This document shows positions 2,721-4,460 of a stretch of 64,000 nt of DNA, piece by piece. Under the pieces are notes generated by a model. The model was given only the letters and a program-made list of their open reading frames with translations, was not told the DNA's origin and searched no databases. The stretch's first letter is position 1, and each line of letters starts with the position of its first letter. The position numbers and the translations under genes were made by a program. This stretch comes from a virus. Its lineage: Duplodnaviria; Caudoviricetes. Where the stretch lies: IMG/VR virus record IMGVR_UViG_2519899649_000001, positions 1 to 64,000 of that record. One strand, 5' to 3'.

Positions 2721-2736
2721 CCCTCTCGGGAGAGGG
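2721..2736 (+). promoter_or_regulatory. Hairpin overlapping the portal ribosome-binding site
   Basis: CCCTCTC (2721-2727) / GAGAGGG (2730-2736) inverted repeat covering the SD of ATG 2748. Confidence 0.4.
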
Positions 2737-2747
2737 GGTGATGCCAC

Positions 2748-4460
2748 ATGGCCATTAGCTTCCTTCCACCCAGCGCGCGAGCCGCCGGTTCAGACCTGAC
2801 CATCGCCATCTCGCCGCTCGGGCTAGTGGAGCTTTTACCTCGCTGACGAAGAGTTCGAGGTACACGGCCCTCGAAGACCCGCTTGAACCGCTATGCGACA
2901 AGCTGGGCCTTCTATCTGGGGCACCACTGGGCCTACCGGCGTGAATTCGGCGAGCCGCAGATCACGTTCAACTACGCCCGCGCGTTTGCTGACTACGCCA
3001 ACAACTTCACCTTCTCCCGCGGCGTGCACTTCGAGAGCGCCCCGGCGTTCCAGCACATCATCCCAGCGCTGCTCCAGCGCATCTGGGAGGTCGACAACGA
3101 CAAGGCCCAGACGTTGTGGAGCGTGGGCAACCACGGCTCGGTGTCGGGCGACTCGTTCGTCAAGGTGGCCTACGAGCCGCCGTTCGAGGACGCCGCCGGA
3201 AACCCGCATCCGGGCCGCGTTCGGATCTTGCCGCTCAACAGTTCCTTCTGTTTTCCAGAATGGCATCCGCATGATCGCGAAAGACTTCTGAGATTTAAAC
3301 TGAAGTACAGATTCTGGGGCACCACTCTAGAGGGAACTCGGCAGGTCTTCACTTACACCGAGATCCTGACCGACGACCGCATTGAGGAATACGTCAACGA
3401 TGAGCTGATCGACTCCCGGCCCAATCCGCTGGGTCAGGTCCCGATCGTGCACATCCCCAACATTCCTGTCGCCGGTTCCCCTTGGGGACTGTCGGATATC
3501 CATGACATCATTCCGCTGAATCGTGAGTACAACGAAAAAGCCACGAACATCAGCGACATCATCAATTACCACGCCAGCCCGGTCACCATCATCACCGGTG
3601 CGAAGGCGAGCAACCTTGAGAAGGGCCCCAAGAAGGTTTGGGGTGGCCTGCCCAAGGACGCCAATGTCTTCAATTTGGAGGGCGGCACCAACGCGTTGCC
3701 GCACGCCCTGGCGTACCTGGACATGCTCAAGCGGAGCATGCATGAGATGACCGGCGTGCCGGAGTCGGCACTGGGGCAGATGCAGCCCATCAGCAACACC
3801 TCGGGCGTCGCTCTGAGCATCCAGTACCAGCCCATGATCCAGAAGATGGATCTCAAGCGCCTTCAGTACACCGTGGGGCTCCGCAGGATCAACGAGCTGG
3901 CCCTGCGCACCCTGTTCCTGCACGAGCCGGAGACGCTGGCCTACAACCCTGAATCCGACGGTCTTCTCACCGAGGGCCAGGCGCTCGTCATCGACCCGAA
4001 CGACCCCGCCGTCTACGACGTCAAGTGCGTCTGGTCGGCCCCGCTCCCAGTAGACGTCCTGGTGAAGCTCAACGAGATCCAGGCCAAGCTCGCTTTGGGC
4101 TTGGAATCCAAGGTCGGCGCTCTGCGCGACTTGGGCAGCGAGTTCCCAGACGAAAAGATGGCCGAGATCAACGACGAGCTGATCGACGAGGCCAAAAAGC
4201 AAGGCGCCGTCGACCTAGTCCGTGTTCAGGTCCAGCAGGCCATCGCCGCCATCACCGGAGTCATGCCGACACCCGACGGCGGAGCCGAGCCGGTCATGGG
4301 CCCACCGCCCGCCGGCGAAGGCGAATCACCGCAACCGCAAACCAATCCAATGATGGGCCTCGACTCAGCCGAGGTCCAGAACCTAGCACCTGAGCTACTG
4401 ACCCAGGCGTATGGCACAAAGCTGGCCCAGCGCCGGGCACCGAACAACAACTCAGCCTGA
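2748..4460 (+). CDS. Portal protein; 5' end interrupted (true start probably ATG 2748, uninterrupted ORF 2883-4460)
   Basis: SPP1-type portal motifs (QITFNYARAFADY, GSVSGDSFVKV, GLSDIHDIIPLNREYN, HEMTGVP); ATG 2748 has SD GAGGGGG and encodes MAISFLPPS...SPLGLVEL in the same frame, but TGA 2844-2846 intervenes. Confidence 0.88.

Follow-up and report, generated by a model that had tools for sequence, protein, structure and literature searches.

Short inserts in the portal gene of a BRock-like prophage as candidate gaps for ribosome hopping

The element considered here is the portal gene of an integrated BRock-like prophage, found on the + strand of a 64,000-nt stretch of DNA (positions 1 to 64,000 of IMG/VR record IMGVR_UViG_2519899649_000001; hereafter, the window). 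The gene is broken by two short inserts, and several described systems resemble it. In T4 gene 60, a 50-nt coding gap is bypassed; GGA serves both as take-off and as landing codon, and a UAG stop follows the take-off codon. Next to gene 60 is a homing endonuclease gene (mobE), to which its bypass element is linked. Programmed +1 frameshifting after CUU at a slow A-site codon is found in bacterial prfB (RF2: CUU UGA C, with an upstream Shine-Dalgarno [SD] sequence) and in yeast Ty1 (CUU AGG C). The 'byps' in mitochondrial genes of Magnusiomyces capitatus, a yeast, are bypassed inserts, tens of nucleotides long and spread over many genes. In Streptomyces, TTA has a single decoding tRNA, that of bldA, which is under developmental control.

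UUA-led bypass is described in large terminase genes: that of Streptomyces phage phiHau3 has two gaps of 10 nt, and those of the StrepC.1 and S. catenulae prophages have one each (7 nt for S. catenulae). Smith et al. (2013) put it forward, and Antonov et al. (2023) tested it (PMC10732093). Full-length product was seen in Streptomyces; in E. coli, the proof of bypassing was a junction peptide. The series includes 4 sites in 3 of 100 terminase genes (PMC10732093). No report of bypassing in portal genes was found in the literature searched.

Layout of the portal gene

All parts of the portal gene given below, and the inverted repeat in front of it, are on the + strand. The portal gene begins at ATG 2748, preceded by the ribosome-binding site GAGAGGGGGTGAT. 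Its first coding segment (2748..2834; 29 codons, MAISFLPPSARAAGSDLTIAISPLGLVEL) aligns with the N-termini of the portals of phages BRock, GiJojo and more than 80 further relatives. It ends with the putative take-off codon CTT (2832-2834), directly 5′ of which lies an SD-like GGAG (2828-2831). Coding gap 1 (TTACCTC, 7 nt, 2835..2841) starts with TTA 2835-2837. The second segment (2842..2874) lies in the +1 frame; its 11 codons, ADEEFEVHGPR, agree fully with the family consensus, and the last of them, CGA 2872-2874, is the second putative take-off codon. Coding gap 2 (AGACCCGC, 8 nt, 2875..2882) has AGA 2875-2877 first and CGC 2880-2882 last. The third segment (2883..4460; 525 codons, LNRYATSW...) is in the original frame, which reopens at TTG 2883 and has no stop until 4460. 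It carries an SPP1_portal domain (PF05133, SPP1 gp6-like portal; E 2.8e-20, 73.1 bits for a curated cut-off of 25.5). This match starts only at profile position 42, consistent with an N-terminal part being missing from the 525-codon open reading frame (ORF).

Frame 0 from ATG 2748 encodes MAISFLPPSARAAGSDLTIAISPLGLVELLPR and then a stop. After the first 29 codons it reads TTA CCT CGC TGA, with TGA (2844-2846) three codons after TTA; normal decoding of TTA 2835 leads to a 32-aa peptide. The +1 frame reads AGA CCC GCT TGA after ADEEFEVHGPR, with TGA (2884-2886) three codons after AGA. When both inserts are skipped, a 565-aa portal is obtained (family size: usually 560-575 aa), with the exact family motif LGLVEL-ADEEFEVHGPR-LNRY; the part restored by skipping gap 2 is HGPR-LNRY. 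The last triplet of each gap is synonymous with the codon preceding the gap (CTT/CTC for gap 1, CGA/CGC for gap 2).

A preliminary description of this DNA, made from its letters only, had reported two frame-restoring inserts (7 and 8 nt) that enclose a stop codon, and translation of the window frames confirms all of its coordinates. The second insert had been placed at 2872-2879 (CGAAGACC), which is equivalent to AGACCCGC at 2875-2882: owing to repeats of 2 nt, the inserts can each be positioned in more than one way, within a few bases. Two features of the inserts are absent from that description: TTA is a rare, bldA-type codon, and each insert ends with a codon matching the preceding one.

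In the long ORFs of the host genome, no sense codon is used less than TTA (0.09 per 1000); AGA (0.54 per 1000) comes tenth in rarity and is the sole Arg codon among the ten rarest. Genes for tRNA-Leu(UAA) were found in the host, and zero tRNA genes in the prophage (ARAGORN). In the 64-kb window, TTA 2835 is the only + strand TTA found in frame with an open frame of high GC3. Outside the window, in-frame candidates for other TTA gaps of the prophage (C1:672082, 682347, 692146 and 713563) were rejected, as they look like antisense or non-coding ORFs.

Among cultured phages, the nearest are BRock and GiJojo of Streptomyces (portal 57% identical; for BRock, over its whole length). Alignment of the portal with its closest relatives shows that the upstream segment is conserved: BRock and GiJojo portals start 41 codons upstream and read ...AISPLGLVEL-SDEEFEMHGPR-LNRY... 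in a single frame. The continuous motif LGLVEL-(A/S)DEEFE(V/M)HGPR-LNRY, which the preliminary description had given for homologues, holds in both phages and in all related loci that include the region (80 IMG/VR contigs and 2 genome contigs checked), except L040, the gap of which sits further downstream than those of the window. The flanks of the window inserts are directly joined in more than 80 relatives, and neither TTACCTC nor other extra bases are found in any of 50 distinct DNA variants of intact relatives. Relative to one uninterrupted relative (L007), the extra bases of the window are exactly TTACCTC, which parts CTT from GCT, and AGACCCGC, which parts CGA from TTG. The search of protein clusters gave more than 3,600 portal homologues. 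Among the best 120, about 10 are interrupted; the motif has no indel in the other ~110, which are intact, nor in the related loci read. None of the solved structures matches the portal family by sequence.

Gaps in related portal genes

Gaps were read at the DNA level in portals called as short ORFs that begin at or near the motif. The resulting set includes 20 gaps: the two of the window and those of 15 other loci (L040, L088-L093, L095, L101, L105, L106, L130, L147, L148 and L194). Gaps are written below as preceding codon[gap]codon where reading resumes.

Three of the loci belong to named Streptomyces strains. L088 (chromosome of Streptomyces sp. NBC_00055) has CTT[TTAACTC]GCG, near-identical to window gap 1; L090 (chromosome of Streptomyces sp. 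NBC_01451) has GAA[TTACCGAC]GTC; L130 (Streptomyces sp. NPDC056192) has GAA[TTATGAG]GTC and, mid-gene, CGA[TTAGC]CTG. Other TTA-led gaps are GAA[TTACCTCGAT]GAA in a 112-kb metagenome contig (L089), GAG[TTACGTG]GAA, GAA[TTACCGAA]GTG and TTC[TTATC]GAA in three Logan contigs (L091, L092 and L093, respectively), AAT[TTAC]TGG in an IMG/VR contig (L040) and TAC[TTAC]CTG in the nearest relative of the window (L105). Three gaps are found in L106 and L107, which are JGI and Logan contigs: CTT[TTACCTC]GCT, CGA[TTACGC]CTG and TAT[TTAC]CTC. The stop-led gaps are TTC[TAGCTAC]GAG (L095-L100, listed in 174 collection blocks), GAA[TAACGAA]GTC (metagenome contigs L101-L104) and TAT[TAG(G/T)TAC]YTN (lower-GC relatives L147, L148 and L194/L205).

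The 20 gaps are located at ten sites: nine in the first ~55 codons and one mid-gene, so that gaps are not confined to the N-terminus. The first codon is TTA in 14 gaps, a stop (TAG or TAA) in five and AGA in one (window gap 2). All 14 TTA-led gaps come from high-GC, actinomycete-type sequences; among the stop-led gaps, four belong to lower-GC relatives that also have ordinary TTA Leu codons. Lengths are 4, 5, 6, 7, 8 and 10 nt: every frame class is represented, and one gap is in frame (6 nt, L106). Skipping the gaps restores the motif exactly or to within one residue. The last gap triplet is synonymous with the codon before the gap in 13 of the 20. For this matching, an automated conservative count gives a binomial p of ~1e-6; spurious '?' rows that the script returned in the variable region after LNRY were excluded by hand.

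The window and L106 (and also L107) have an identical 27-nt core around gap 1, though the portals of the window and L106 are only 65% identical. The TTA-led gap CGA[TTACGC]CTG of L106 is at the same site as window gap 2 and has the same CGA/CGC pair. A pattern scan of viral contigs for LGLVEL followed by TTA found the L106 contig alone. A metagenome scan seeded with the small ORF P0195 found TAG-led gaps only, and none led by AGA or by another Arg codon.

Small N-terminal ORFs were collected with a profile (155 ORFs). Among the 120 listed, 60 have deviant tails, of which 27 begin with Leu. In P0141, P0152, P0162, P0188, P0195, P0213 and P0216, some tails start with R, K, I or C, not L (EEFE/RPF..., EEF/IRSK..., NWA/KRLL... 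and VEL/IAR, the slash marking the start of the tail); such tails could reflect assembly errors or gaps that open with other rare, A/T-rich codons (AGA, AAA, ATA, TGT). The second site of L130 (L130:2940-2965) is ~170 codons into the portal, within HPHDRDR/LLRFK. Several Streptomyces prophage portals (P0106 cluster, members of 394-401 aa) are called as ORFs of about 396-401 aa that start at this second site; the DNA was read for L130.

Six strains from different metagenomes (L095-L100) carry an identical TAG-led gap. Downstream of it, pS reaches 0.11 and pN/pS is 0.02-0.07, which indicates that the out-of-frame portal body is under strong purifying selection. In a tree of 124 portals, made with the N-terminal region left out, gap-bearing portals are scattered, with at least 9-11 changes among 12 gap-bearing rows; gapped and intact portals can be ~92% identical. 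Both observations imply that gaps are often gained or lost. Evidence from selection and from the tree bears on the class of gaps, not on the window's own lineage.

In the window, as in L088 and L106, CTT has the SD-like GGAG directly 5′ of it, while GTGGAG is absent from all 50 intact DNA variants; the three occurrences may share ancestry and thus not be independent. Both inverted repeats that the preliminary description had noticed around the inserts are real (2836-2842/2856-2862 and 2854-2860/2869-2875, the latter one base longer than noted). The two mutually exclusive hairpins that they were said to form are present; they are not counted as recoding signals, since folds in the window are no better than those of shuffled sequence (z -0.2 to -1.7) and the second hairpin already exists in the uninterrupted L007. 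The hairpin described over the SD sequence is present too: the inverted repeat CCCTCTC/GAGAGGG (2721..2736) overlaps the portal ribosome-binding site (fold z -0.17 relative to shuffles). This G+C-rich hairpin is unlike an intrinsic terminator because no T-run follows it.

Several features are shared with the phiHau3 type: short inserts in an essential DNA-packaging gene of a temperate Streptomyces-type phage, insert flanks that are adjacent in uninterrupted homologues, a stop soon after the slow codon, the possibility of multiple gaps per gene, a candidate landing codon and an SD-like sequence just upstream. The TTA-first insert of that type is found in gap 1 (TTA), not in gap 2 (AGA). The gene differs by encoding a portal, not a terminase, and by belonging to a family of 113-kb BRock-like phages of the myovirus type. 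Gap 2 is 8 nt long (+2 class) and AGA-led, whereas the published inserts with checked lengths (10, 10 and 7 nt) are all of the +1 class. The portal series is also larger (about 20 gaps at ten sites) and is known here from sequence alone.

A matched take-off/landing pair and a slow-to-decode A-site codon are likenesses to T4 gene 60; a stop codon would occupy the A site in L095, L101, L147, L148 and L194, as it does in gene 60, of which these stop-led gaps are like a small version. An HNH endonuclease gene is directly upstream, as mobE is a neighbour of gene 60, in L095-L100 only. The gaps are 4-10 nt long, not 50 nt, and the endonuclease neighbour is absent from the window. As at the prfB and Ty1 sites, peptidyl-tRNA-Leu would be on CUU with a slow A-site codon next, and the window shares with L088 and L106 the GGAG immediately before this CUU. 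In contrast to these sites, a one-base slip would lengthen an invariant motif and is blocked in L088 by a stop in the +1 frame, and the re-pairing codon of the portal gaps does not overlap the take-off codon. The byps of M. capitatus are likewise many short inserts in coding sequence, several per gene, skipped between matching codons; they are mitochondrial and longer, whereas the gaps of the portal gene, the one gene examined here, are 4-10 nt long and all but one are in the first ~55 codons.

Putative hopping over both gaps and competing explanations

The portal is best explained as a single gene whose three coding pieces are parted by two short non-coding gaps, and ribosomes probably hop over both. 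At gap 1, peptidyl-tRNA-Leu would be held on CTT 2832-2834 with TTA, the rarest host codon, in the A site. During the wait it would release, slide 7 nt and re-pair with CTC 2839-2841, and decoding would restart at GCT. Eleven codons on, at gap 2, AGA would occupy the A site while peptidyl-tRNA-Arg moves 8 nt downstream from CGA 2872-2874 to CGC 2880-2882; decoding would restart at TTG 2883. Ribosomes that decode TTA or AGA normally would stop at the TGA three codons on. The hopping product would contain the tryptic peptide AAGSDLTIAISPLGLVELADEEFEVHGPR, followed by LNR. A regulatory use is conceivable: the portal, and hence virions, would be made chiefly under a shortage of charged bldA tRNA, in the way suggested for the terminase of phiHau3.

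The preliminary description had offered three options: a recoding device (double frameshift or bypass) that would limit portal output, a template-switch mutation or an assembly artefact. Recoding is the best supported of the three, given ~20 recurrences in relatives, and its form would be hopping (bypass) over both inserts, not slippage at 'CTT TTA'. Frameshifting to overlapping codons, by +1 at CTT-T (LVEL-YL-ADEEF) and by -1 at CGA (HGPR-KTR-LNRY), would add five residues to the portal and is quite improbable. Both alternative frames are open across the window gaps, and hungry codons do provoke +1 and -1 shifts (PMC5009743). Yet one to three residues would then be put into a motif that never varies in length, neither in the ~110 intact homologous proteins nor in the related loci read. 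L088 has TAA in the +1 frame directly at the site (CTT T/TAA), which excludes a simple +1 slip there and not a hop from CTT to CTC (LVEL-ADEEF). Gaps of 4-10 nt, of both frame classes and including the in-frame one, restore the consensus (to within one residue at most) only if skipped. The occurrence of +1 and +2 classes plus one in-frame gap fits hopping better than a single slippage mechanism. In phiHau3, placing a +1-frame stop in the gap left recoding unreduced (PMC10732093). For its terminase, Antonov et al. (2023) arrived at bypassing from like arguments, supplemented by this experiment and the junction peptide.

Both inserts could instead be inactivating mutations of a prophage in early decay, with the local inverted repeat as one possible template; their likeness to bypass gaps would then be fortuitous. 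Of the seven bases of insert 1, six complement 2857-2862, the outcome expected of a template switch, so that this part of the earlier proposal could explain the origin of insert 1. Two further points in favour are that all cultured relatives are intact and that many Streptomyces prophage portals of the P0106 cluster are called as shortened ORFs. A template switch does not explain why unrelated inserts all start with TTA, however, and random lesions are not expected to give TTA in 14 of the 15 gaps led by a sense codon, or a repeat of the preceding codon in 13 of 20. The same 7-nt insert is found in an independent portal that is only 65% identical, one gap-bearing lineage is under strong purifying selection, and the other homologous genes of the window are all unbroken. 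A pseudogene is unlikely. An artefact of assembly or sequencing is extremely unlikely: the genome is indeed a 37-contig draft, but non-repetitive inserts of 7 and 8 nt would be an unusual type of error, the design recurs across many data sets, and the same insert with the same flanks, forming the 27-nt core, is present in independent JGI and Logan metagenome contigs from other samples (L106 and L107).

A mixed case has to be weighed for gap 2: gap 1 would be a working TTA-led bypass, and the AGA-led gap a later lesion or a decayed TTA gap, so that little or no functional portal would be made and the prophage would be virion-defective. Gap 2 is alone among the 20 in opening with a triplet other than TTA or a stop; in prophage ORFs, AGA is not a particularly scarce codon (2.3 per 1000); and the gap resembles a changed version of the L106 gap at the same site (TTACGC compared with AGACCCGC), hence it looks like a modified TTA gap. 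Against this, gap 2 keeps the CGA/CGC pair and a TGA three codons after AGA, like gaps of the working type, and when it is skipped the exact family motif returns. AGA nevertheless belongs to the ten rarest codons of the host, and every other gene that has a BRock homologue is free of frame changes. The mixed case is considered rather unlikely.

Several points weigh against hopping over both gaps. AGA is only the tenth-rarest codon of the host, and no second AGA-led gap exists among the 20 read; gap 2, the only one of its kind, is for this reason the weakest and most novel part of the proposal. It could be either a functional rare-codon gap or one that has decayed; mainly on this account, the production of a full-length portal is held to be reasonably probable and not more. 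Two serial hops would multiply two probably low efficiencies. A synonymous landing codon is lacking in seven of the 20 gaps, the folds of the window do not exceed those of shuffled sequence, as given above, and the fast turnover of gaps is also compatible with recent, tolerated damage. The portals of all six cultured BRock-like phages are uninterrupted, which means that no plaque-forming isolate in that collection is known with such a gap. Finally, the window portal is a singleton: its nearest relative is 68-69% identical. No close relative of the prophage was found in 100 related genomes, in GTDB species genomes (best 63%), in 5.8 billion protein clusters (best 68%, a metagenomic relative) or, by DNA, in the phage collection.

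The prophage, its neighbouring genes and the meaning of the gaps

The window is part of a 759-kb contig of a 6.7-Mb genome (73-74% GC; 37 contigs, 99% complete). The host is taken to be a Streptomyces from the relatives and this GC content. The prophage is integrated, BRock-like (myovirus-type) and 113,160 bp long; BRock and GiJojo were deposited as free linear phage genomes. It is bounded by imperfect direct repeats of ~55 nt (C1:600,578-600,631, just left of window position 1, and C1:713,738-713,791, ~49 kb past the window end), in which the 3′ end of an acyl-CoA dehydrogenase gene is present twice. At the left end is the terminase gene, which begins 275 nt away from this host gene; at the right end is a tyrosine integrase gene (C1:712,158-713,549, - strand). 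All other prophage genes with BRock homologues align without frame change. From these unbroken genes, the att repeats and the integrase, the remainder of the prophage looks intact.

Two ORFs are located between the terminase and portal genes (1624-2235, 203 aa; 2275-2688, 137 aa) and have no Pfam or PHROG match. BRock, with six small genes in that interval, also lacks a counterpart of the former. In L092 (1052-1267), L093 (1202-1474) and L094 (2148-2357), a gene of the Acb2/Tad1-hairpin family (anti-defence sponges; assigned from precomputed Pfam hits) lies between terminase and portal; the window has none. In L095-L100, a 249-aa HNH/endonuclease VII-like gene (761-1510) ends inside the start of the portal gene, and none was found beside the other gapped portals examined. 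HNH (PF01844) has no match in the prophage, and no recognisable endonuclease gene is found nearby or anywhere in it. A homing-endonuclease link for the window gaps is therefore not supported.

The analysis suggests two novelties relative to the published cases, which are a few Streptomyces phage terminase genes: UUA-type bypassing in a portal gene and an AGA-led gap. Published UUA-triggered bypassing rests on three terminase genes, to which the portal adds a natural series of about twenty differently built gaps. These vary in length (4-10 nt), frame class, take-off/landing pair and trigger (TTA, stop, AGA): the rules of short-range hopping could be read off from them. The window gaps are in an apparently complete integrated prophage of a nearly complete draft genome and are directly testable if the strain is in culture.

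Gene callers report gapped portals as N-terminally truncated proteins plus hypothetical ORFs of 30-45 aa. Examples are the 'phage portal protein' entries of Streptomyces sp. NBC_00055 (528 aa) and NBC_01451 (516 aa). Tools that assess prophage completeness could score such portals as defective.

More tentatively, short-range hopping might be general and repeatedly evolved for the portals of this soil/freshwater phage family, and not tied to UUA. If so, any A-site codon that is slow enough would serve: UUA in actinomycete hosts, stops in lower-GC hosts and AGA in window gap 2, which would be the first case. The two serial hops in this lysogen would then make the output of virions depend on how far two rare host tRNAs are charged.

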